From: Anaerolineae bacterium
GTDB lineage: Bacteria; Chloroflexota; Anaerolineae; CG2-30-64-16
Assembly: GCA_034432655.1 (NCBI GenBank)
Contig: DAOUBP010000038.1
Span: 660-64,659, forward strand
Length of the DNA: 64,000 nt
Direction: 5' to 3'
Positions 6,467 through 56,302 of the stretch are shown in pieces (position 1 is the first letter of the stretch; every line of letters starts with the position of its first letter). Made by a program: the position numbers and the translations under genes. The notes below the pieces were generated by a model. The model had not been told where the DNA came from. It was given only the letters and a program-made list of their open reading frames with translations, and did no database searches.

Positions 6467-8506
6467 TCACGCCTCACGTCTCAACATCGCCAACAGCCCG
6501 CCCGCGTCCAAGATCGCCGCGACCGACGCGGAGAACGGCGGGAACGGGAATTCGCCGGCCGCGCAGGTCACAACGCCGCGGCCCAGGTCAATGCTGATGT
6601 GTGCACCGGGTTGGATAGCTGCAACCGCCTCGGGGCAGACGATGGGGAGGAGGCCGTTGTTGACAGCGTTTCGGAAGTAGATCCTTGCGAAGGACGCCGC
6701 AATGATAACCCGAATCCCCGCCGCGCGCAAACAGGTGACGGCCTGCTCACGACTGGAGCCGCAGCCGAAGTTGCGGCCGGCTACGATGATGTCGCCCGGT
6801 TGAACATTGGCCGCGAAGGTCGGGTCGAGGTCCTCCAGCGCGTGGCGGGCCATCTCGGCTTCTTCCTTGATGGTGTAGGTGTATTTGCCCGGGAAGATGA
6901 CGTCGGTGTTGACATCGTCGCCGTAGACCCAGGCGCGGCCGGAGAGGATGTTGGATGTTCGATGTTCGATGGACGATGGAGCGCGTTGCGTATTGCGTAT
7001 TGCGTACTTCGTATCTGGGGTAACCTTTTGTTCTGGAATCGAGGCTTTAGCCGGTTTCGTGGGCGAAGCAGTAGACCGGCTCACATCTCGATCCCAGTCG
7101 TCTTGATTCGGAATCGAGGCTTTAGCCGGTTTGGTGGATGAAGCATCTGACCGGCTAAGGCCTCGAGTCCAGTCGCGCAATTCCTCCATGTACGGGATCC
7201 GCCCCAGGGCCGCGCTGGCGGCGACGACCGCAGGGCTGGCCAGGTAGATCCGGGCGTCGGGGTTGCCCATGCGGCCGCGGAAGTTGCGGTTGGCGGTGCT
7301 GATGACGGTCTCGCCCGCGGCGGGGATGCCCAGGTGGTTGCCCATGCACGGGCCGCAGCCGGGCGTGCCGATCAGCGCGCCGGCTTCGAGGAAGGTCTGG
7401 ATGTAGCCCGCGGCCAGCGCATCCTGCAGCACCTGACTCGATGCCGGGACAACCAGCAACCGCGTGCCCGCGGCAACGCGGCGCACCCGTCCGTCCGGCC
7501 CGCGCAGTGCCGCGGCGGCCTCTGCCAGGTCCTCCAGCCGGCCGTTGGTGCAGGTGCCGATGAAGGCCTGGTGGACCGGGGTGCCCGCCACCTCGGACAG
7601 CGGCACGACGTTTGCGGGGTTGTGGGGCACGGCGACGACCGGCTCCAACGCGCTCAGGTCCACGGTATGACGGGCGATGTAGGGCGCGTCCGGGTCGGGG
7701 TAGAGCGCGAGCGCAGCAAGGTTCATAGGGACGACTTCAGTCGTCCCGCCGCGCTCGGAACGGCTGAAGCCGTTACGACGAACTGCCAACCGTTCCGCCA
7801 GCCACGCGAACACCGCCTCGTCCGGTTCCAGGTACGCGCTTTTCGCGCCCGATTCGGCCAGCAGGTTGGGGAGCACCATCCGGCTCTCGATGCTCAGCGC
7901 CCGCAGCCCCGGCCCGCCGATCTCGATGGCCCGGTAGATGCCCGCCTCGGGGCCGAGCAGCTTCAGCAGCCACAGGCCCAGGTCTTTGGCGGTGACTCCG
8001 GGCCGCAGGCTGCCGATCAGGTCCACGCGGATCGTCTCCGGCACGCGCAGCCAGAGCTCGCCGGTGGCCCACAGCGCGGCAACCTCGCTGCGGCCGATGC
8101 CCGCGCCGAACGCGCCCAGCCAGCCGAAGTGCGTGGTGTGGCTGTCTGCGCCCAGGATGAGCTGGCCGGGCAGCACCAGCGCCTCCTCGCTGAGCACCTG
8201 ATGGCAGATGCCCCGGCCGACGTCGAAGAAGTGCGTGATGCCCTGCTCGGCCACAAAGCGGCGCACCTCGGCGTGGTTCTGCGCGTGCTCGGCCGTGGGC
8301 GCGGGCACGGCGTGATCCAGGGTGATGGCCAGCCGCTCCGGGTAGCGCACCCGGTCGCGCCCCAGGCTGCGGAAGAGCCGGGCGATAGCTGCGGTGTTGT
8401 CGTGGCTCAGCACGATGTCGGGCCGGGCGTCCACGATCTGGCCGATGGCCGCGTGCGGCAGCCCCGCCGCGCGGGCCAGGGCTTTTTGGGCAAAAGTTTG
8501 TGACAT
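6467..8506 (-). CDS. homoaconitase / 3-isopropylmalate dehydratase large subunit and small subunit read as one ORF, joined in-frame by a ~80-aa repeat-derived linker
   Basis: N-part [15 protein letters not shown]...SHTTHFG...GTCTNGR...GCGPCMG (large subunit); C-part [19 protein letters not shown]...[11 protein letters not shown] (small subunit); no stop and no ATG/GTG/TTG start between them; linker DNA 6950-7200 = heptamers + two palindromic elements. The 40 codons upstream of ATG 8506 (to 8626) lie in a palindromic repeat and were excluded. Confidence 0.7.
6950..7034. repeat. tandem heptamers (ATGTTGG/ATGTTCG/ATGGACG... then GCGTATT/GCGTACT) inside leuC-leuD linker
   Basis: direct reading, period 7. 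Confidence 0.7.
7035..7169. repeat. two tandem copies of a ~60-bp palindromic MITE/REP-like element GGAATCGAGGCTTTAGCCGGT-N19-ACCGGCTAAGGCCTCGAGTCC (third copy at 62678-62738)
   Basis: 16-bp inverted arms; copy A right arm degenerate; lies in-frame inside the leuCD ORF. Confidence 0.7.
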
Positions 8507-9792: not shown

Positions 9793-9799
9793 GGGTTGC

Positions 9800-9993
9800 T
9801 CCGTGATGCGTATTGCGTACTGCGTACTGCGTATTGCGTACTGCGTACTACGTATTGCGTATTGCGTACTGCGTGATGCATGATGCGTTAATTCGCTGAT
9901 TCGTCATTCGTCCTTCGTCCTTCGTCCTTCGTCCTTCGTCCTTCGTCATTCGTCCTTCGTCATTCGTCCTTCGTCCTTCGTCATTCGTCCTTC
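9800..9993. repeat. intergenic tandem arrays: CGTATTG/CGTACTG heptamers (9805-9885) then CGTCCTT/CGTCATT heptamers (9895-9993)
   Basis: direct reading, period 7, two families. Confidence 0.8.
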
Positions 9994-9994
9994 G

Positions 9995-11212
9995 TCAAGT
10001 AAGTGCAGTTTCGATCGCCTCTGCCACCCGCTCCAAATCCTCCTCCTCGATCACCAGCGGCGGGAGGAGGCGGAGGACGGTGGCGCCGGCGGGGAGGGCG
10101 AGGACGCCCAGGGCTTGCAGCCGCTGCAGGATGGGCGTGACTTTGACCTTCAGCTCGATGCCGATCAGCAGGCCCAGGCCACGCACCTCGCGGATGAGCG
10201 GCGAGTTGATGGCGCGCAGGCGGGCTTGCATGTGCTCGCCCAGCCGCGCGGCGCGTTGGGGGAGGATTTCGGTTGTAATCGTATCAATCGCCGCCAGCGC
10301 GGCCGCGCAGGCCAGCGGGTTGCCGCCGAAGGTGCTGCCGTGGGTCATGGGGCGAATGCCGGCGACACGCGGCCCGATCAGGCAGGCGCCCATCGGCAGG
10401 CCGCCAGCCATGGACTTGGCGACCGTCATCAGATCGGGAGCCAGGCCATAGTGCTCGCAGGCGAACAGCCGGCCCGTGCGACCGAAGCCGGTTTGGATCT
10501 CGTCCAGGATCAGCAGCGCGCCCCGCTCCCAGCAGACGCGCTGCGCCGTCTCCAGGAACCCGGGCGTCGCCGGGTGGACCCCGCCTTCGCCCTGCACGAC
10601 TTCCAGCAGCACCGCGGCCGTCTGGTCGGTCACCGCCCGTTCCAGCGCCGCACTGTCGTTGAACGGGATGTGGCTGAAGCCGGGCACCAGCGGCTCGAAG
10701 GGCTGGCGGTACTCGCGGTTCCACGTCGCCGACAGCGCGCCCAGAGTGCGACCGTGGAAGCCGCGCATGGCCGCCACGATCCCGCTGCGGCCGGTGCTCA
10801 GCCGGGCGAACTTGATGGCCGCCTCCACCGCCTCCGCACCGGAGTTGCACAGGAACGCGCGCTCCAGCCCGGCCGGCGCGATCGCGGTCAGGCGGGCCAG
10901 CAGCTCGGCGCGGCGGTCGTTGTAGAAGATCTCCGGGCAGGAGATGAGGGTGGCTGCCTGCCCGGCGATGGCCGCGACCACTGCCGGGTGCGCGTGGCCC
11001 AGGTTGGCCGCGCCCTGCCCGCCCACGCAGTCAATGTACTCCCGGCCCTCCGCGTCCCAGACCCGCGCGCCCTGTCCTCGCACGATCGCCAGCGGCCGCT
11101 TGGGGTAAACGCCGGAGGTGTGGCGCGATTCGAGGGAGAGGATGGTAGATTGGTAGGTTGGTAGATTGGTAGATTGGTAGGTTGGTGGGTGGATGGGACG
11201 AGTGTCAGTCAT
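9995..11212 (-). CDS. lysJ: class-III aminotransferase: [LysW]-aminoadipate semialdehyde / acetylornithine aminotransferase
   Basis: [45 protein letters not shown]; N-terminal ~30 aa ([22 protein letters not shown]) is encoded by the GGTAGRTT octamer array so the true start is uncertain. Confidence 0.8.
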
Positions 11213-11310
11213 GGGAGACCTCCCCCAATTCACCAAGTCCCAATCTACCAGTTCCTACTTTACCAACCCCCAATTTACCAACTTCCACTGTGCCAATCAC
11301 AGTCCCCTCC
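11140..11310. repeat. octamer array GGTAGATT/GGTAGGTT (11140-11195) and an inverted copy (11225-11310) spanning the lysZ stop / lysJ start junction
   Basis: direct reading; the two arrays are reverse complements and can pair. Confidence 0.65.
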
Positions 11311-12098
11311 CCGGCCAGCGCGGCGCGCACCGGGTGCGGGCGACGGGAGTCGGCCAGGATGACGGCGGGGACGCCGCCGGCCAGGGCCTCGCGGGCGGCC
11401 AGCAGCTTCTTCTTCATGCGGCCCTGGGCCAGGCCTTCGACCGCGTCCAGGTGAGAGGGCGCCACGTGGCGCACCAGGCTGCTTTCGTCCGGGAAGTTCG
11501 CCAGCAGGCCGGGCACGTTGCTGAGGATGATCAGCGCGCCGGCCCCTAGCGCGACCGCCAGCGCCGCCGCGGCCCGGTCGCCGTCCACGTTGAGCCGCTC
11601 GCCCTGCGCGCCCAACGCCAGCGGCGCGATGACCGGGGTGTAGCCGGCGCCCAGCATCAGCCGCAGCAGGTCGCCGTTGGCCGTTTCGAGCTGGCCGGTG
11701 TAGTCGTCACGGATGATCCGCTGCCGGCCGTTTTCCACCGCGCGCACCGCGTCCTTCCGCCGGGCCACCAGCAGCCGGCCGTCCACGCCCGACAGCCCGA
11801 CCGCGTTGCAGCCCAGCGCCTGGAGCCGGGCCACCAGCGCCTTGTTCACCTGCCCGGCCGCGGCCGCCACGTAGAGCTCCAGCATCTCCGGGTCGGTGTA
11901 GCGGCTGACGTGGCCCGAGGGCGAGGTGATGTGCCGCACCGGCACGCCCGCTCGCGCGGCCAGCGCATCGGCCGCGGCCGACGTGCCGTGCACCAGCACG
12001 ACCGGCCAACCCTCGGCCGCCAGCCCCGCGCTATCTGCCAGCACGGCGTCGGCATCCACCCCCGCCGCGCCGCCGAGTTTGATGATGATGGGATACAT
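11205..12098 (-). CDS. lysZ: [LysW]-aminoadipate kinase / acetylglutamate kinase family
   Basis: MYPIIIKLGG...VLVHGTSAA...; C-terminal tail [26 protein letters not shown] is repeat-encoded and overlaps lysJ start. Confidence 0.8.
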   Translation of the reverse strand: MYPIIIKLGGAAGVDADAVLADSAGLAAEGWPVVLVHGTSAAADALAARAGVPVRHITSPSGHVSRYTDPEMLELYVAAAAGQVNKALVARLQALGCNAVGLSGVDGRLLVARRKDAVRAVENGRQRIIRDDYTGQLETANGDLLRLMLGAGYTPVIAPLALGAQGERLNVDGDRAAAALAVALGAGALIILSNVPGLLANFPDESSLVRHVAPSHLDAVEGLAQGRMKKKLLAAREALAGGVPAVILADSRRPHPVRAALAGEGTVIGTVEVGKLGVGKVGTGRLGLGELGEVSHD

Positions 12099-12197
12099 GA
12101 GTGCTCCTGTTGCGTATTGCGTACTGCGTATTGCGTACTGCGTATCTTCTCCAGGCGGTACGCAGTACGAAGTACGAAGTACGAAGTACGGAGTATG
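12099..12197. repeat. inverted heptamer arrays (GCGTATTGCGTACTG... vs GTACGCAGTACGAAGTACG...) forming a long hairpin between lysY stop and lysZ start
   Basis: direct reading. Confidence 0.7.
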
Positions 12198-13253
12198 CTA
12201 TATCGGGTGCAGTCCTGTAGACTTCAACCCAGCCGTTTCGTCCAGCCCGCACATCAGGTTCATGCACTGCACCGCGCTGCCGGCCGCGCCTTTGCCCAGG
12301 TTATCAATGGCGGCCAGGGCCACCAGGCGGCCGGTGGCCGGCTCCAGCTCCCAGCCGACGTCGGCCAGGTTCGTGCCGGCCAGCAGCTTCGGCTCCGGGT
12401 GGCGGTAGATGCCGCCCCGCTCGTGGACGATGCGCACGAACGGCTCCTGGCCGTAGGCCGCGCGGTAGGCCCGCCAGAGGTCTTTGTCGCTCAGGCCGGG
12501 CTGCACCCACGCGTGCGCGGTCGCCAGCACCCCGCGCACCAGCTCGATCGAGGTCACCGACAGATGCACATCTCCGATCCCCAACACCTGCCGCACCTCG
12601 GCCTGGTGGCGGTGGCCGGTGGGCGCGAAGGAGCGCACCGCGCCGGCCCGCTCCGGATGATGCGACGCCGCGTTCGCGGCCGCGCCCCCCTCGGACGACC
12701 CTGCCTTCACGTCCACGATCACCGGTCGGTCGGCCCGCAGCAGCCCGGCCCGGACCAGCGGCAGCAGCGCCAGGACGGCGGCGGTCGCGTTGCAGCCGAC
12801 GCCGGAAGCATATTGCGTACTGCGTATTGCGTCGCGGTTGGCTTCGGGGAGGCCGTAGGTGAAGCGTGAGAGCCAGTCGGGGGCGGCGTGGGGTTCGCCG
12901 TAGGTGGCTTGATAGGTTTGCGGGTCGGAGAGGCGGAAGTCGGCGGAGAGGTCAATGATGCGGGGGGCGAGGCGGGCAAAGTGCTCGATGCGGCGCTGGG
13001 CCTGGCCGTGGGGCAGCGCCAGGAACAGCACGTCGCACGGGGCCAGCTCGCTGAGGGCCGTGAAGCGTATGGGCGGGATCCGGCCGCCCACGGGCCGCAG
13101 GTTGGGGTGCAGGCTGTGCACGTACTCGCCCGCGTGCGACTCGGAGGTCACCTGCGCCAGCTCGACGGCCGGGTGGCCCAACAGCAGCCGGATCAGCTCG
13201 CCCCCGCCGTAGCCGGAGCCGCCGACGATGGAGACGCGGAGGGGGGCGGTCAT
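12198..13253 (-). CDS. lysY: N-acetyl-gamma-glutamyl-phosphate reductase family: [LysW]-aminoadipyl-phosphate reductase
   Basis: [32 protein letters not shown] (active-site Cys region), NLGKGAAG; in-frame RSTQYA insertion from heptamers at ~12805-12840. Confidence 0.85.
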
Positions 13254-14212
13254 GGGCGGGCCTCCGGGGTGGTATTGCGTATTGCGTATTGCGTACTGCT
13301 TGCCGTTGAATGAGCAGTTCTCTCATGGTCTACGCAGTATGCAGTACGCAGTACGTACTCTGCCACCCGCGCCGGGATATCCACCCCCGTCGTGTGAATG
13401 CTGTTGCGGAACTCCATGGTGTGGTTCACCTCGTTGACCAGGAAGCCGCGATCGGGGTCTTCCAGCACGTCAATCGCGAGGACGCCGCCGCCCACGGCTG
13501 CCGCGGCCCGGCGGCAGAGGTCGTCCAGCTCCGGCGTCACCGGGCAGTTGGAGGCCTGGCCCCCGCGCGCGGTGTTGGTGATCCAGTGCGTCGAGCCCCG
13601 GTAGATCGCCGCGATGGTCTCGTCGCCCACGACGAAGGCGCGGATGTCGCGGCCGGGCTTGCGGATGTATTCCTGGATGTAGAAGATGCTGTGCAGGTAG
13701 TTGCCCAGCACCTCCTTGTGTTCCAGGATCGCCTCGGCCGCGTCCCGGTCGTTGATGCGGGCCAGCAGTCGGCCCCACGAGCCGACCAGCGGCTTGAGCA
13801 CGACCGGGTAGCCCAGTTCTTCGATGGCTTGCAAGGCCGCTTCGGGGGTGAAGGCCACGCGCGTGCGAGGCTGCGGGATGCCGGCCTCGGCCAGCGCCGC
13901 GCTGGTCAGCAGCTTGTCCCAGCACGTGGCCGCGGTGCGATAGGTGTTGACCGTGGGGATCCCGGCCGCCTGGAGCAGCCGCAGCGCATAGATGCCGCGT
14001 GCCGCGCTGACGGAGCGCTCGAGGACGATGTCGGCGCGGATGTTGTAGGGCGAGATTCCATCTCGCCCCACCGGCAGCACCAGCTCATCATCGTTTACCA
14101 GCTGCACCGTCGCGCCGGTGGCTTCCAGCGCGGCCAGCAGCAGCTTCTCCTCCACGCGGATGCGGGAGACGATCATCGCGACGGTGATCTGGGAGTGACC
14201 GTTCTTGCTCAT
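13250..14212 (-). CDS. lysX: RimK-type ATP-grasp ligase: alpha-aminoadipate--LysW ligase
   Basis: ATP-grasp motifs ([27 protein letters not shown]); start MSKNGHS 4 nt overlapped with lysW stop; C-terminal ~30 aa ([27 protein letters not shown]) repeat-encoded. Confidence 0.8.
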
Positions 14213-14379
14213 TCGCCCCAATCCTCCGCCTCTTCCGGCGCCAGGTCGAGGACCAGTGGGTCCAGCGACACCACCTCCAGCTCCGCGCCGCACGCCGGGC
14301 ACGGCACGATCTCCCCCTGCAACGGGTCGCGCAGGGTCACAGGACCTTCACATTCTGGACAGAGTGCTTCGCGTGACAT
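14209..14379 (-). CDS. lysW: LysW amino-group carrier protein (zinc-ribbon, C-terminal EDWGE)
   Basis: [16 protein letters not shown]...[10 protein letters not shown]...EEAEDWGE; perfect RBS aggagg 8 nt upstream; ORF-track ORF (to 14517) extended upstream through repeats by a TTG start. Confidence 0.85.
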
Positions 14380-14394
14380 GAGTGCCTCCTGATG

Positions 14395-14510
14395 ATGTGG
14401 GTTCGTACTGCGTATTGCGTACTGCGTATTGCGTGATTCGCCATTCGTTGATTCGTTGATTCGCTGATTCGCTGATTCGCCATTCGCTGATTCGTTGATT
14501 CGCCATTTCG
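14395..14510. repeat. 5' UTR of lysW built from heptamers (CGTACTG/CGTATTG) and ~12 octamers TGATTCG(C/T)
   Basis: direct reading. Confidence 0.75.
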
Positions 14511-14511
14511 C

Positions 14512-14841: not shown

Positions 14842-14869
14842 AGTATAACTAAAGTGCGCGATCTGTCAA
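14842..14869 (-). promoter_or_regulatory. sigma-70-type promoter TTGACA-N16-TATACT driving the leader/terminator region and lys operon
   Basis: minus strand TTGACAgatcgcgcactttagtTATACT. Confidence 0.5.
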
Positions 14870-14907
14870 ATTTCAAGTGTGGCCAACAAGACGATCAAAA
14901 CATCAGG

Positions 14908-15003
14908 CGGGGGCGGATGGGAGTCGAACCCACCTTGGACGCTTCCTAGGCGCCCATCACCGGTTTTGAAGACCGGGGCCGCCACCGGACGACAACCACC
15001 CCC
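14908..15003 (-). tRNA. selC: tRNA-Sec (selenocysteine), anticodon UCA, 96 nt, 8/5 acceptor/T-stem architecture with long variable arm
   Basis: GGGGGTGG-TT-GTCGTCCGGTGGCGGC-C-CCGGT-CUUCAAA-ACCGG-[26-nt variable arm]-GTGGG-TTCGACT-CCCAT-CCGCCCCC-G; aligns block-for-block with E. coli selC (TCGTCTCCGGTG..., CTTCAAA, TTCGACTCC). Confidence 0.85.
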
Positions 15004-18258: not shown

Positions 18259-19338
18259 TTATCTGATGAGCAATCCCGTCGGATCAATTTCCCTCAAGAT
18301 CCTTCGTTCCTCCTCCGTCGGCGCGGCGGTGACGGCCAGCGGCTCGGCCACCGGGATCGGGAAGCTGCTGTTGGCCTGGATCTCCTCCACGGTGACGCCG
18401 GGGTGAACGGCCAATAGATACATGGTCCTGGTCGCTTCGTCGAAGCCGTAGACGCCCAGCTGCGTGATCACCCGATAGGGGCCGGTGTTCGCCGGCAGCC
18501 CTGCGCGCTCACGTGCGCCCGGACCGGTCAGATAGCCTGGGGTGGTGATAAAGTCCAGCTTCTCGGCGAACTTACGGCGGTCCTGGCGCATGATGATGAT
18601 GGTGCGATGGCAGGCCGAGCCTACGTCATTTGCCCCGCCGCTGCCGGGCAATCGGACCGTAGGGTGCTCCCAATCGCCGATCACGGTGGTGTTGATGTTG
18701 CCGTACGGGTCAATCTGCGCGGCGCCCAGGAAGCCGTAGTCCAGATGGCCGGCCTGGGCCATGGACATCACGTCGTGCATGCTCGAGGCGGCCACAGCCT
18801 GATGGAAGGTGCGCGAATCGCCCACGGAGATGGGCAGCACCGGGATGTGGGGGCCGATGCCGCCGGCTTCGAAGATAATCAACAGGCCCGGCGCGTGGGT
18901 GCGCTGCGCCAGCATGGCGGCGATCATAGGCAGCCCTGTGCCGACGAACACTGATTTACGGTCTTCCAGCAGGTGTGCCGCGACACAGGCGAGCAGCTCG
19001 GTGGAGGAATAAGGAGACGTGGAAGCAGGGAGACGCGAAGATTCTCCGCGTCCCCGCGTCTCCGCCTCCCCGTGTCCCCGCGTCCCCGCGTCCCCGCGTC
19101 CCCACGTCTCCGCCTCCCCGTGTCCCCGCGTCTCCGCGTCCCCGTGTCCCCGCGTCTCCGCGTCCCCGTGTCCCCGCGTCCCCGCGTCCCCGTGTCCCCG
19201 CGTCTTCGCGTCTCCGCGTCCCCGCATCCCCGCGTCCCCGTGTCCCCGCGTCTCCGCCTCCCCGCGTCCCCGCGTCTCCGCCTCCCCGCGTCCCCGCGTC
19301 TCCGCGTCCCCGCGCGCCTGCATCATCGGATCCTCCAT
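18259..19338 (-). CDS. CoA-transferase subunit B (glutaconate/3-oxoacid CoA-transferase beta-like) with ~80-aa N-terminal extension encoded by the TCCCCGCG octamer array
   Basis: VFVGTGLPMIAAMLAQRTHAPGLLIIFEAGG, AQIDPYGNINTTVIGD, GSGGANDVGS; no in-frame ATG/GTG/TTG between the repeat and the conserved domain. Confidence 0.7.
   Translation of the reverse strand: MEDPMMQARGDAETRGRGEAETRGRGEAETRGHGDAGMRGRGDAKTRGHGDAGTRGHGDAETRGHGDAETRGHGEAETWGRGDAGTRGHGEAETRGRGESSRLPASTSPYSSTELLACVAAHLLEDRKSVFVGTGLPMIAAMLAQRTHAPGLLIIFEAGGIGPHIPVLPISVGDSRTFHQAVAASSMHDVMSMAQAGHLDYGFLGAAQIDPYGNINTTVIGDWEHPTVRLPGSGGANDVGSACHRTIIIMRQDRRKFAEKLDFITTPGYLTGPGARERAGLPANTGPYRVITQLGVYGFDEATRTMYLLAVHPGVTVEEIQANSSFPIPVAEPLAVTAAPTEEERRILREIDPTGLLIR
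19016..19320. repeat. ~37 tandem octamers TC(C/T)CCG(C/T)G
   Basis: direct reading, period 8; translates as (R/G)GDAETRG in CoA-transferase B frame. Confidence 0.85.
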
Positions 19339-19700
19339 TGCTCAGAGTGGCTGATCATGTTCACCAGTTTGCCCAGCACGTTGTCGTATGCGGCCGATAT
19401 TTCATTGCCCACGGAGGGAGCCAGATAGCTACACTTGACGGAAAACTCCAGCCAGACCTGGGTTTCAGCAGCCTCTGCTTCGGAATCGCTGAGCTTGCTG
19501 CTGAAAGCGTTGGGATATCGTCGTTTCCGCCAGGCCTCAGCTATGTTTGCGCAGACGGACCGTGAGGATCGTCGAATCTGGTCAGTTAGCGAGTAACGTT
19601 CTTCCTTCGGGAAGTCTTTTGTCAACTCAAAGATCCGCATCGCCAGCTCCATCGCCAGCTTGTACACATCCAACTCACGAAAATCCCGAATATTGCTCAT
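19323..19700 (-). CDS. four-helix-bundle protein (TIGR02436 / 23S rRNA intervening-sequence protein family)
   Basis: MSNIRDFRELDVYKLAMELAMRIFELTKDFPKEERYSLTDQIRRSSRSVCANIAEAWRKR...; start with RBS ggaggg; ORF-track N-extension (to 19844) is octamer-encoded. Confidence 0.8.
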   Translation of the reverse strand: MSNIRDFRELDVYKLAMELAMRIFELTKDFPKEERYSLTDQIRRSSRSVCANIAEAWRKRRYPNAFSSKLSDSEAEAAETQVWLEFSVKCSYLAPSVGNEISAAYDNVLGKLVNMISHSEQWRIR

Positions 19701-19703
19701 ACT

Positions 19704-19912
19704 CCCTCCTCTCCGCGTCCCCGCGTCTCCGCGTCCCCGCGTCTCCGCGTCCCCGCGTCCCCGCGTCCCCGCGTCTCCGCGTCCCCGCGTCTCCGCGTCC
19801 CCGCGTCCCCGCGTCCCCGCGTCTCCGCGTCTCCGCGTCTCCACGTCCCCGCGTCTCCGCGTCTCCGCGTCCCCGCGTCCCCGTGTCTCCGCGTCTCCGC
19901 GTCTCCGCGTCT
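19704..19912. repeat. ~26 tandem octamers TC(C/T)CCGCG (same family and orientation as 19016-19320)
   Basis: direct reading. Confidence 0.85.
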
Positions 19913-19914
19913 CC

Positions 19915-20901
19915 TCACGCCCTGAGCGCCTCGACCTCTCGCAGATAATCCAGCCGTTCCCGACCTCCTATCTTCTCCAGGTATGCCTCGAAGTCGGGCA
20001 CCCCGAAGACGAACTCCTCGAAATACTCGGCTGCGCCTGCCGCAGTTTTTGAGCGCTGCATCCAGGAGCGAATATGGTCTTCGTCGAAGTAGTAAAGCCG
20101 TGGCATCTGACAGGGATGGCTGCCGAAGGGCACTTCCACCACTGCGTCCACCAGATGGTAAGGGATGACCGTGCGCCAGGGTGTTTCCCGGATCTGTGCT
20201 TCGGGGATGATCTGCTCGGTGGTGAGGATCAGACGGCGGGCCGCGCGCGCCAGCTCGAAGTCCTCGATGATGGTGCCGTCAATCTGCGCGTTGCCGTACA
20301 TATCGCACCGGGTCACGTGGATGAAAGCGACGTCGGGGTAACAGGCGGGCAGCAGGCAGATCGGCTTGCCGCTCCACGGATCGCGCACCACCTTGGCCGA
20401 GCTGTGGGCCAGGGTGTCGGTGCCCAGCAAGCTGCGGGTAGGGATGAAGGGCAGGCCCATGGCCGCGGCCAGGAAGCGCCACTGGTAACCGGCGTTGCTG
20501 GTCTCGGCCACCACGCGGCAGTGGCCCTCTTCCACCATGCGCCGCGAGGCAGGGGAGAGGCCGCGCAGCTCGTGTCCGAAGGTGTACGCCACCTCGACCC
20601 GATCCACGCAGCCGGACGCAATGAGGATGTCGCCGTCGTGCACGGCCGTCTTGCCGGCCAGTGTCAGATGACGCTTGCGCTGGCGGATGATCTCGTAGAT
20701 GACGGCCATGCTCACGCGCACATGGCCGAAGCCGCCGGAGGCGATCAAGGCACCGTCGGGCACAAAACGCGCCACCGCCTCGGCCACCGTCATGCGCTTG
20801 TCACGCAGGTCCCGGGATTTGTTCTTCAGCACCCATTCCCGGTTCTCATCCGGGTCGTGCCAGCCGATCAGCTCGCCGTGGCCTTCTTGCAAGAGCTCCA
20901 T
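19915..20901 (-). CDS. CoA-transferase subunit A (glutaconate CoA-transferase alpha-like)
   Basis: family-level similarity over whole length; strong RBS ggaggtg upstream of ATG 20901. Confidence 0.7.
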   Translation of the reverse strand: MELLQEGHGELIGWHDPDENREWVLKNKSRDLRDKRMTVAEAVARFVPDGALIASGGFGHVRVSMAVIYEIIRQRKRHLTLAGKTAVHDGDILIASGCVDRVEVAYTFGHELRGLSPASRRMVEEGHCRVVAETSNAGYQWRFLAAAMGLPFIPTRSLLGTDTLAHSSAKVVRDPWSGKPICLLPACYPDVAFIHVTRCDMYGNAQIDGTIIEDFELARAARRLILTTEQIIPEAQIRETPWRTVIPYHLVDAVVEVPFGSHPCQMPRLYYFDEDHIRSWMQRSKTAAGAAEYFEEFVFGVPDFEAYLEKIGGRERLDYLREVEALRA

Positions 20902-26331: not shown

Positions 26332-26931
26332 CTAGTCCTCCCGGCCGGGCAAAGGATCTTCACCTGGGTGCGGCGTCACTCCACTTTCATCCCGGCCGTC
26401 GGGGCTGGCCCCGGAACCCGGCTCCGCACCAGGGGGCGACATCTGCCCGCTTTCATCCAGGGCGTCGGGGCTTGCCCCAACCTCCTCGACCCCGGGGCTG
26501 GCCCCGGAACCCGGCTCCGCACCAGGGGGCGACATCCGCCCGCTTTCATTCAGGGCGTCAGGGCTTGCCCCAACCTCCTGGACCTCGCGGCTGGCCCCGG
26601 AACCCGGCTCCGCACCAGGGGGGGTCGTCAATTCGCGCATGACCGAATCGCGGATCGCCCGGCCGGGGTCGCGGGCGGCCATGGCCAGCGCGGTGGCATC
26701 TTTGGCAACTTCCTTGATCTCTTCCAGCGGGCGGCTGATCTCCTGGTCAGGGTCCAGCGCCTGGCGCGCCTTCTCCAGCTCGCGCGAGAACTCGCGCGTC
26801 GCTTTGCGCATCTGCCGCATGCTCCTGCCAAGCTTCGCGCCGATTTCCGGCAGCTTATCGGGGCCAAAAACGGCTAGCGCCAGGATCAGGATGATGATCA
26901 GTTCAAACGGCCCGATTCCGAGAATTTCCAC
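26332..26931 (-). CDS. tatA: Sec-independent translocase TatA/TatB with long acidic/Pro-rich repeat tail
   Basis: MEILGIGPFELIIILILALAVFGPDKLPEIGAKLGRSMRQMRKA. Confidence 0.85.
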   Translation of the reverse strand: MEILGIGPFELIIILILALAVFGPDKLPEIGAKLGRSMRQMRKATREFSRELEKARQALDPDQEISRPLEEIKEVAKDATALAMAARDPGRAIRDSVMRELTTPPGAEPGSGASREVQEVGASPDALNESGRMSPPGAEPGSGASPGVEEVGASPDALDESGQMSPPGAEPGSGASPDGRDESGVTPHPGEDPLPGRED

Positions 26932-52421: not shown

Positions 52422-52442
52422 CCGGGCGACAAGGTGACAAGG

Positions 52443-52611
52443 TGACAAGGTGTATCTGCAGACGCCCGTGCTGTTGATCGGCCTGGTCGCGGCGATGGCC
52501 CTGGCGCTGCGCACAGCGCGGCAGCACGATCAGCCGCCGCGCGCGGCCCTGCCCGTCGCGTTCTTCTGTGTCGCGGCGACGTTGGGGCTGCTGGGCCTGT
52601 ATCTGGGATAA
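52443..52611 (+). CDS. possible small two-TM membrane protein (GTG start)
   Basis: hydrophobic 54-codon ORF between PCYCGC and cupredoxin genes, preceded by GACAAGGT x2.5 repeat. Confidence 0.2.
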
Positions 52612-52663
52612 GGACGTGCCAGGCACTTGGGAAGTGCCTGGCACGCAAGATCTCGCTTGAGCC

Positions 52664-56166: not shown

Positions 56167-56302
56167 GATGCCACATGCGGCGGTCGGCCGCACCAGGGCG
56201 GAGGAAAAAGCTCACACAAAGACACAAAGGCACAAAGAGATATAATTTTTTGGGCGTCTTTGTGGCTTTGTGTGAGACCAGGAGGGCGCTTTCAGGGCAG
56301 GG

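Follow-up and report, generated by a model that had tools for sequence, protein, structure and literature searches.

The window analysed here, a stretch of 64,000 nucleotides, contains on its minus strand a lys operon for the alpha-aminoadipate route to lysine, in whose spacers, gene ends and coding regions tandem arrays of 7-8 nt units are found. The genes stand in the order lysW, lysX, lysY, lysZ, lysJ, homocitrate synthase, homoaconitase, homoisocitrate dehydrogenase and lysK, and an NCBIfam profile search reveals all lys genes to be intact. Residues 6-350 of LysY match positions 2-345 of the 345-position TIGR01850 profile, and its match to 2OZP has an E value of 2.6e-112. The source genome is that of a Chloroflexota bacterium, Anaerolineae/Caldilineales-like, which harbours many dispersed 7-8 nt tandem arrays. 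The coordinates of the genes and of the array-bearing segments are collected in Table 1.

Three consecutive ACGCART units, with up to three mismatches allowed, are matched 55 times in the window (overlapping matches) compared to 0.02 matches expected from shuffled sequences, and all 55 fall within 4.9-22.6 kb. In the same part of the window, Tandem Repeats Finder detects 25 arrays with a period of 7-8 nt, at least 2.7 and up to 33 copies; the units seen in the window include ACGCART, TCTACCAA, GGACGAA, GCGAATCA and GGGGACGC. Only three of these 25 arrays lie wholly within conserved protein cores, although such cores make up 83% of the 4.9-22.6 kb stretch. Clearly, the conserved cores are nearly free of arrays. 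Compared to the 25 arrays between 4900 and 22600, the region from 24000 to 64000 is almost devoid of 7-8 nt arrays; small ones are present at 52428-52452 and at 56214-56238, the latter accompanied by an inverted partner.

The main family, (ACGCART)n, sits 0-60 nt upstream of start codons in sense orientation. By inspection, its units contain neither a stop codon nor an ATG, GTG or TTG in any frame, so that array DNA which reaches into an open reading frame (ORF) is simply translated. The antisense unit ATTGCGT contains a TTG. In a metagenome scan, three consecutive ACGCART units were found on at least 120 contigs. Across 80 Chloroflexota loci the density of arrays is patchy and ranges from 0 to 19 per 10 kb; the Chloroflexus loci sampled among them (lys operon) contain no such arrays.

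Table 1. Genes and array-bearing segments of the lys operon within the window.
Feature	Position	Strand	Basis or content
lys operon (alpha-aminoadipate lysine route)	~4.1-14.4 kb	minus	NCBIfam, Pfam and PDB matches
LysK in-frame insertion, ~24-28 aa	4973..5066	minus	three adjacent arrays: CTGGAAG, CCAATCC, ACGCART
Homoisocitrate dehydrogenase insertion, 19 aa	5851..5907	minus	comparison with the Thermus enzyme (HICDH 3ASJ); array-like DNA
Homoaconitase large/small domain linker (single ORF 6467-8506)	6947..7175	minus	in-frame arrays
lysJ-homocitrate synthase spacer	9793..9997	minus	(TGACGAA/GGACGAA)x14 from the lysJ stop, then (ACGCART)x10
lysJ	9995..11212/11236	minus	NCBIfam
lysJ start and repeat-read N-terminal residues	11139..11212	minus	ORF, profile, fold
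lysZ	11205..12098	minus	NCBIfam
LysZ C-terminal tail, 29 aa + stop codon	11205..11294	minus	profile, tandem-repeat and fold data
lysY-lysZ spacer	12099..12197	minus	imperfect hairpin: 5' arm (ACTTCGT)n 12158-12195, 3' arm (ACGCART)5 12110-12145
lysY ([LysW]-aminoadipyl-phosphate reductase, ArgC family), 351 aa, intact	12198..13253	minus	TIGR01850; 2OZP
Three perfect heptamers in lysY, same-length replacement	12812..12832	minus	codon and protein alignments, AlphaFold model
lysX	13250..14302	minus	NCBIfam
LysX C-terminal tail, ~30 aa	13253..13342	minus	profile, ORF, array reading
lysW leader	14380..14511	minus	(GCGAATCA)n, (ACGCART)4, AGGAGG, ATG
lysW	upstream end of operon	minus	NCBIfam

Junction architecture, array orientation and turnover

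Read in the sense of the mRNA, the junctions display a recurring layout in which the upstream stop codon is followed by a first array, a loop, (ACGCART)n, the Shine-Dalgarno sequence and the ATG. The first array often begins at the stop codon and is often stop-rich; otherwise it consists of the antisense unit. This layout is present at lysY, at lysZ, at an acyl-CoA dehydrogenase gene, at a gene starting near 20901 and at a radical-SAM gene on the plus strand. The (ACGCART)5 arm of the lysY-lysZ spacer directly adjoins the lysZ Shine-Dalgarno sequence, and the ten-unit array ahead of homocitrate synthase ends in ACGGAG, which constitutes the Shine-Dalgarno sequence itself. The two arrays of this latter spacer are not complementary to each other, and in the lysW leader (ACGCART)n is likewise preceded by a non-complementary array.

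The sequence-only reading, made from the letters of the window before the present analysis, had proposed that arrays of opposite orientation flank several gene junctions and can form long hairpins. RNA folding sustains this for two of the three junctions concerned. The lysZ/lysJ junction folds with -78.8 kcal/mol (z = -3.97), the lysZ stop codon as well as the Shine-Dalgarno sequence and the ATG of lysJ being located at the apex of the hairpin. The lysY/lysZ junction folds with -38.5 kcal/mol (z = -3.87), and here the GGAG of lysZ is paired with a CUCC beginning 7 nt past the lysY stop. At the lysX/lysY junction the fold (-34.0 kcal/mol, z = -1.5) is not significant. When 22 junctions were folded on both strands no consistent advantage of the sense strand became apparent, several lys junctions even favouring the antisense strand by 9-25 kcal/mol; a sense-strand-specific RNA structure was rejected on these grounds. 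The arms of orthologous hairpins cannot be aligned between relatives. A rule according to which the 5' arm is G/T-rich and stop-rich and the 3' arm C/A-rich was dropped since, while many junctions fit, the hairpin at 56214-56270 shows the opposite arrangement.

A function of the hairpins as intrinsic terminators was rejected as well, as they lack T-runs and a scan for terminator-like sites (a GC-rich stem followed by a T-run) yielded none within the lys operon. The same applies to a known RNA family or riboswitch, for an Rfam search matched no family to the arrays or junctions, its single match within 4-24 kb being a tRNA-Sec. The gene of this tRNA (14906-15003, minus strand) lies directly upstream of a strong sigma-70-like promoter match (TTGACA-16-TATACT) at 14842-14869 on the minus strand. 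The distance of about 460 nt between this match and lysW implies a long leader, for which there is no Rfam match.

Array orientation was assessed for 90 ACGCART arrays on 80 loci, out of the at least 120 contigs matched, with crude gene models derived from ORF length and the G+C content at third codon positions (GC3). A coding-like ORF starts within 60 nt downstream of 35 arrays in sense but of only 11 in antisense orientation. For arrays which have no inverted partner and are followed by a gene start the ratio is 20 sense versus 2 antisense (P = 1.2e-4), the median distance from the end of these unpaired arrays to the start codon being about 20 nt. Of 72 metagenomic arrays, 22 have an inverted partner within 200 nt upstream; a downstream partner is present in 3 cases. 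Palindromes of the type 5'-(AYTGCGT)n...(ACGCART)n-3' are thus strongly preferred. Owing to this fixed polarity, the stretch of a polycistronic mRNA that separates one stop codon from the next ribosome-binding site can fold into an imperfect hairpin. Ten of the 90 metagenomic arrays are situated within coding-like ORFs, nine of them in sense orientation, and give rise to peptides of the TQYAIRN type.

Comparison with relatives reveals a rapid exchange of arrays at orthologous positions. The lysZ leader contains 5, 3 and 5 units in the window, in L001 and in L002, respectively, while the homocitrate synthase leader contains 10, 5 and 3. In L004, L006, L007, L008, L010 and L011 the same junctions carry unrelated unit families, and in L005, L009 and L012 they carry no arrays. 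In the closest relatives, L001-L003, the lysY-lysZ spacer contains a palindromic element of about 115 nt, GTCATTCTGAGCG...CGCTCAGAATGAC, resembling a miniature inverted-repeat transposable element (MITE), which replaces the 5' heptamer arm of the window (L001 1412-1690, two copies; L002 7056-7240; L003 7053-7220). In many relatives the stop codon is the first unit of the downstream array, as in TGACGAA TGACGAA, TAGGGAT TAGGGAT or TGAAGCG TGAAGCG, which suggests outward growth from the stop-codon context. We would like to note that a further dispersed palindrome, CGTGCCAGGCACTT...AAGTGCCTGGCACG, is found at 52613-52650 of the window and in two copies in L010 (lysZ-lysJ spacer).

Two explanations which attribute the junction arrays to something other than the turnover favoured below have to be weighed here. 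According to the first, selection maintains arrays and hairpins as cis-acting RNA elements on the polycistronic lys mRNA. As a leader, (ACGCARU)n would then serve as a start- and stop-free spacer, as a translation enhancer or as a platform for an RNA-binding protein, whereas the intercistronic hairpins would stabilise upstream cistrons or enforce translational coupling, with translation of the LysZ and LysX tails opening the hairpin. The orientation bias of the unpaired arrays and their short distance to the start codon conform to this explanation, as do the fixed polarity of the pairs, the apical position of the lysZ stop and of the lysJ start signals, the pairing of the lysZ GGAG, the retention of the lysX/lysY ATGA overlap despite two arrays in the tail and the retention in L001 and L002 of the arrays beside ribosome-binding sites. 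Moreover, the same roles have been proposed for the hupS-hupL hairpins of cyanobacterial short tandemly repeated repetitive (STRR) sequences (PMC2670836) and for TAACTGA repeats (PMC4679880). The sense RNA, however, is not the stabler one, pairing of the arms is systematically interrupted by a mismatch every 7 nt, the lysX/lysY fold falls short of significance and the arrays of the lysJ-homocitrate synthase spacer and of the lysW leader do not pair with each other at all. In addition, close relatives possess an unrelated palindromic element in place of an arm, or no array, at the same junction, and in neither L006 nor L010 is the Shine-Dalgarno sequence sequestered. Taken together, we consider a selected RNA role conceivable, albeit rather unlikely.

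The second explanation regards the paired arrays as small mobile MITE- or REP-like hairpin elements (REP, repetitive extragenic palindromic) with heptamer terminal inverted repeats, inserted as units by an array-recognising transposase, and the single arrays as half-elements. It would account for the fixed head-to-head polarity of the arms (22 versus 3), and it may draw on the occurrence of TTGGTAGA both at lysZ/lysJ and at homocitrate synthase/homoaconitase in the window as well as at lysY/lysZ in L006, and on the presence of other dispersed palindromes in the same spacers of L001-L003 and L010. Yet, reading of the sites, which was not a systematic search, disclosed no target-site duplication, no conserved terminus or internal sequence and no shared consensus; each site has its own arm lengths and loop sequence, and the arms often belong to different sub-families. 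No transposase came to light in the window either, though none was searched for. Furthermore, many arrays begin exactly at the resident stop codon, suggesting local growth. Hence, we deem transposition of such elements quite improbable.

Arrays within coding sequences

The coding strand of lysY holds, at 12812-12832, the heptamers ACGCAAT ACGCAGT ACGCAAT (plus strand ATTGCGT ACTGCGT ATTGCGT), which agree with the family without any mismatch, i.e. in 21 of 21 positions of the consensus. They encode DAIRSTQ (D142-Q148), located 6-12 residues before the catalytic Cys154. In the sequence-only reading this array had been taken for a heptamer insertion near the active site whose added residues, RSTQYA, are tolerated. 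This view was not borne out. Between the E-x-N-R and SGVGCNA motifs LysY aligns without a gap to 19 database homologues (74-92% identity), and the number of residues is the same in 30 related loci read codon by codon and in Thermus thermophilus LysY (2OZP, 5EIO). RSTQYA aligns column for column with RNARYA, RSARYA, RGARYV, RTTHHA and KGADWI. In the AlphaFold model of LysY the segment in question comprises the end of a helix (136-145), a turn (146-147) and the beginning of a strand (148-150) which leads towards Cys154, all with a predicted local distance difference test score (pLDDT) of about 96; according to this model, LysY 142-148 is an ordered element of fixed length. From the gap-free alignments and the fixed length of this element it follows that the 21 bases replace native codons and do not represent an insertion. 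An insertion might still be invoked, for the patch is a perfect three-unit copy of the dominant family in codons which are rare for this genome, and the same operon shows real in-frame array insertions in two other enzymes, LysK and homoisocitrate dehydrogenase. It would, however, require an exact compensating 21-nt deletion at the same place and is, in our opinion, very improbable.

That the patch is repeat DNA is evident from its codons, six of eight of which end in A or T compared to a GC3 of 0.909 for the gene. This constitutes the most extreme eight-codon window of lysY (P = 1.4e-5, about 0.005 after correction). At this site, distant relatives display GAC GCC ATC CGC AAC GCG CGC TAC GYC, in which CGC already recurs every 7 bases, and the native lysY codons (about GAC GCC ATC CGC AAC GCG CGC TAC GCC) resemble 3.7 heptamer units. 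Partly perfected units are present in L003 and perfect ones in the window and in L001, while L002 shows the same period with another variant, ACGCACY (ACGCACT ACGCACC ACGCACC). The length of the three-unit patch is identical in all relatives compared. It is hardly credible that the match is a mere coincidence of codon choice or that the arrays are assembly artefacts: although the native R-x-A/T-x-Y-A peptide naturally yields a CGC every 7 nt and chance period-7 matches do occur in some conserved cores, neither the perfect consensus match nor the skewed codon endings would be expected by coincidence, and an artefact is contradicted by the same LysY patch in the independently assembled genomes L001, P0001 and P0004 as well as by arrays at orthologous positions in L001 and L002.

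A second heptamer-like patch of unchanged length is located around LysY residues 222-228 (12570-12590), the copy of the window being the weaker one. In L010 (1514-1534) this site reads (AGGTATT)2 AGGGATT, a family which also makes up the lysY-lysZ spacer of L010, and in L001 (TTGGGGA)x2.5, while other relatives have GCC CTG GGC CGC GAC GAC. The variable LysY loop following HPNLR (16-25 residues in relatives) was inspected for an array origin as well, with no convincing result. As to how such patches arise, we envisage that cryptically periodic lysY codons may have been converted to perfect units, 21 nt corresponding to three units and to seven codons at the same time. Selection would then have kept those versions of LysY in which length, frame and the mostly conserved Arg, Tyr and Ala remain unchanged, so that only variable positions would be altered. 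In any case, the presence of a perfect repeat copy in an enzyme gene does not by itself indicate an insertion.

Array-derived residues at protein termini, which the sequence-only reading had likewise claimed, were confirmed. In LysZ the family profile stops at residue 268 of 297; the 5' arm of the lysZ/lysJ hairpin, a 15-nt (7+8) array at 11224-11287, supplies the codons of the last 29 residues. The LysX ORF comprises 350 residues and its profile match stops at residue 320; the tail crosses both arms of the junction, (ACTGCGT)n at 13331-13355 and (ACGCAAT)n at 13272-13299, before it terminates at a TGA (13250-13252) which overlaps with the lysY start in an ATGA. In the longest lysJ ORF the profile match sets in at residue 32. 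The octamer array (CCAATCTA)n at the lysJ start (11139-11190) is the 3' arm of the lysZ/lysJ hairpin. The ATG at 11212 has a GGAGG six bases upstream; since the DNA from the octamer array to the conserved core of LysJ offers neither an ATG nor a GTG or TTG, this ATG must be the start, and the N-terminus is encoded by the inverse octamer repeat.

True insertions are found elsewhere in the operon. In LysK the insertion stands between GNAVGVLG and ELLLLGHIDTV, where it breaks the profile match in two. The loop concerned comprises 5-7 residues in distant relatives and is hypervariable in close ones (20-60 residues, often containing TQYAVRN); in the structure model it forms a coil with a pLDDT below 50. 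It is a true in-frame repeat insertion in a presumably dispensable loop which is predicted to be disordered. The DNA which accounts for the additional residues of homoisocitrate dehydrogenase relative to the Thermus enzyme consists of (GCAAACY)x3 and CCAATCTACC. The homoaconitase linker of about 83 residues contains heptamer arrays of GAACATC and ACGCAAT together with a 75-nt repeat of 1.9 copies with an internal palindrome, and in many relatives, too, this linker is a hot spot of arrays. The idea that the fusion of the large and the small homoaconitase domain goes back to the repeats was rejected, for the single ORF is shared by relatives which lack these arrays; the arrays merely lengthen a linker that already existed.

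All of these translated arrays, whether in tails, at the N-terminus of LysJ, in loops or in linkers, are situated outside conserved cores or in a loop predicted to be disordered. With intact genes throughout and true insertions in LysK and homoisocitrate dehydrogenase, the suggestion of tolerated in-frame repeat DNA, as opposed to pseudogene decay, has held up. For the annotation of metagenome-assembled genomes (MAGs) this calls for care: start codons have to be chosen with caution, and ORFs that seem extended, gene fusions and odd peptides of low complexity such as TQYAIRN deserve scrutiny.

Origin of the arrays and comparison with known repeat systems

We favour, with about even credence, a reading in which slippage-prone arrays spread by templated processes and pass a filter of selection, making them the Chloroflexota counterpart of the STRR sequences of cyanobacteria and of long simple sequence repeats (LSSRs), with any effect on expression being secondary. 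The arrays would grow and shrink by replication slippage, they would spread and become homogenised via template switching or ectopic conversion, and selection would remove those copies which damage a gene. Intrusions into coding sequence would accordingly be tolerated by-products which selection has filtered. An effect of the arrays on expression, be it through translational coupling or mRNA stability, is hypothetical and would be secondary.

Several observations weigh against this reading. Neither the sense bias of the unpaired arrays nor the polarity of the pairs is predicted by pure slippage, and both rules fit a selected RNA role or a directional mechanism equally well. (ACGCART)n beside the ribosome-binding sites of lysZ and homocitrate synthase has been kept in three genomes whose LysY sequences diverge by 6-8%, and this retention could reflect function. 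The conversion step is one that we infer, neither a donor tract nor a conversion event having been directly observed, and the lysY patch may go back to an old insertion of 21 nt that was offset by a deletion. Chance period-7 matches also occur in the conserved cores of relatives poor in arrays, at about one locus in ten, which renders the count of intragenic patches alone weak evidence. Finally, the metagenomic orientation counts depend on the crude gene models mentioned above.

A stronger version, in which a directional template-driven process (ectopic conversion, template switching between dispersed arrays or mobile hairpin elements ending in heptamer arrays) seeds leaders and spacers and, time and again, rewrites or extends coding DNA frame-neutrally, appears improbable to us. 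If it applied, LysY 142-148 and 222-228 would be its footprints, and the repeat families would act as a generator of variation in loops, tails and linkers and would also constitute a set of tunable intercistronic leaders. If coding DNA is indeed overwritten at constant length by active conversion, selfish or neutral repeats would be shaping proteins in an unusual way.

The slippage-based reading with its selective filter draws on the likeness to repeats described from other bacteria. STRR sequences are 7-bp arrays of filamentous cyanobacteria which form intercistronic hairpins, e.g. between hupS and hupL, and for which a contribution to transcript stability or translational coupling has been proposed (PMC2670836). 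The arrays of the window share with them tandem 7-bp units in many dispersed copies, located mostly between the genes of operons, and hairpins between cistrons, which are predicted at lysZ/lysJ and lysY/lysZ and, weakly, at lysX/lysY. They differ in that they stem from Chloroflexota instead of cyanobacteria and consist of other unit sequences, that numerous unit families exist side by side and change from one close relative to the next, and that arrays are repeatedly translated as tails, loops and linkers. We know of no counts of pair polarity or start-codon orientation for STRR sequences which would be equivalent to those given above. The families STRR1-3 of heterocystous cyanobacteria were reportedly described by Mazel in 1990. 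In the strict sense the arrays of the window do not belong to this class, since the closest genomes are Chloroflexota MAGs and the units differ from the STRR unit sequences.

In a broader sense they do conform to an LSSR/STRR-like class: tandem units of 5-11 nt exceed chance expectation, they are dispersed mostly outside conserved coding sequence and their copy number varies. Among LSSRs, defined by units of 5-11 nt, heptamers are the commonest class in bacteria according to Mrazek et al. 2007 as rendered in PMC4679880. From Chloroflexus aurantiacus, heptamer satellites (GATAGRA)n have been described (PMC6749651). Over-represented tandem repeats, sporadic distribution and presumed slippage are common to these repeats and to the arrays of the window; the surveys are statistical and do not deal with junction hairpins, start-codon orientation or same-length overwriting of coding sequence, all of which are described here. 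A post-transcriptional role was suggested, but not shown, for the TAACTGA heptamers of marine Beggiatoaceae, cyanobacteria and Bacteroidetes (MacGregor 2015, PMC4679880). These resemble the arrays under study in being heptamers a few nt upstream of start codons in one orientation, with occasional copies translated at the start or end of a protein (PMC4679880). In contrast to ACGCART, which is free of stops and starts, TAACTGA provides stops in all forward frames; moreover, it occurs almost exclusively as direct repeats (with one inverted pair), whereas about one third of the arrays studied here possess an inverted partner.

The arms of the hairpins described here are variable-copy arrays of many unrelated units, which sets them apart from REP sequences and bacterial interspersed mosaic elements (BIMEs) of enterobacteria and from Correia-type MITEs. 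All of these known elements are palindromes located between cistrons; as part of the operon transcript they can protect mRNA or bring about its processing, and REP and Correia elements possess a defined consensus and a cognate transposase. Local, fast-evolving tandem repeats which add probably disordered protein segments bring to mind, in turn, the repeats of Borgs. According to PMC9879509, Borg tandem repeats are rapidly evolving, under strong selection and add disordered protein regions. The arrays of the window differ by their units of 7-8 nt and by being mostly non-coding. With units of 7-8 nt, only every third unit restores the frame.

In summary of these comparisons, the arrays represent an STRR/LSSR-type case in an uncultured Anaerolineae-like Chloroflexota bacterium, and their novelty is modest. 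Measured polarity and orientation, pervasive translation within one operon and same-length overwriting are not described in the heptamer-array literature cited here. Some uncultured Chloroflexota, as the counts document, are rich in STRR/LSSR-type arrays of heptamers and octamers, which obey rules of orientation and polarity and are regularly translated into tails, loops and linkers of core biosynthetic enzymes.

Two further repeat-associated features of the window deserve mention. A 93-nt tandem repeat (2.4 copies, 95% identity) occupies 26400-26622 in a long spacer upstream of a minus-strand gene. At 18259-19914 on the minus strand, a gene for a four-helix-bundle protein (TIGR02436, weakly Avd-like) stands between the genes of the CoA-transferase A and B subunits and is flanked by direct octamer arrays (GGRGACGC) of 25 and 33 copies. 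The B-subunit ORF reads about 89 residues of the second of these arrays as an RG-rich segment and offers no later ATG. The four-helix-bundle gene together with its flanks may represent an inserted, repeat-flanked cassette.

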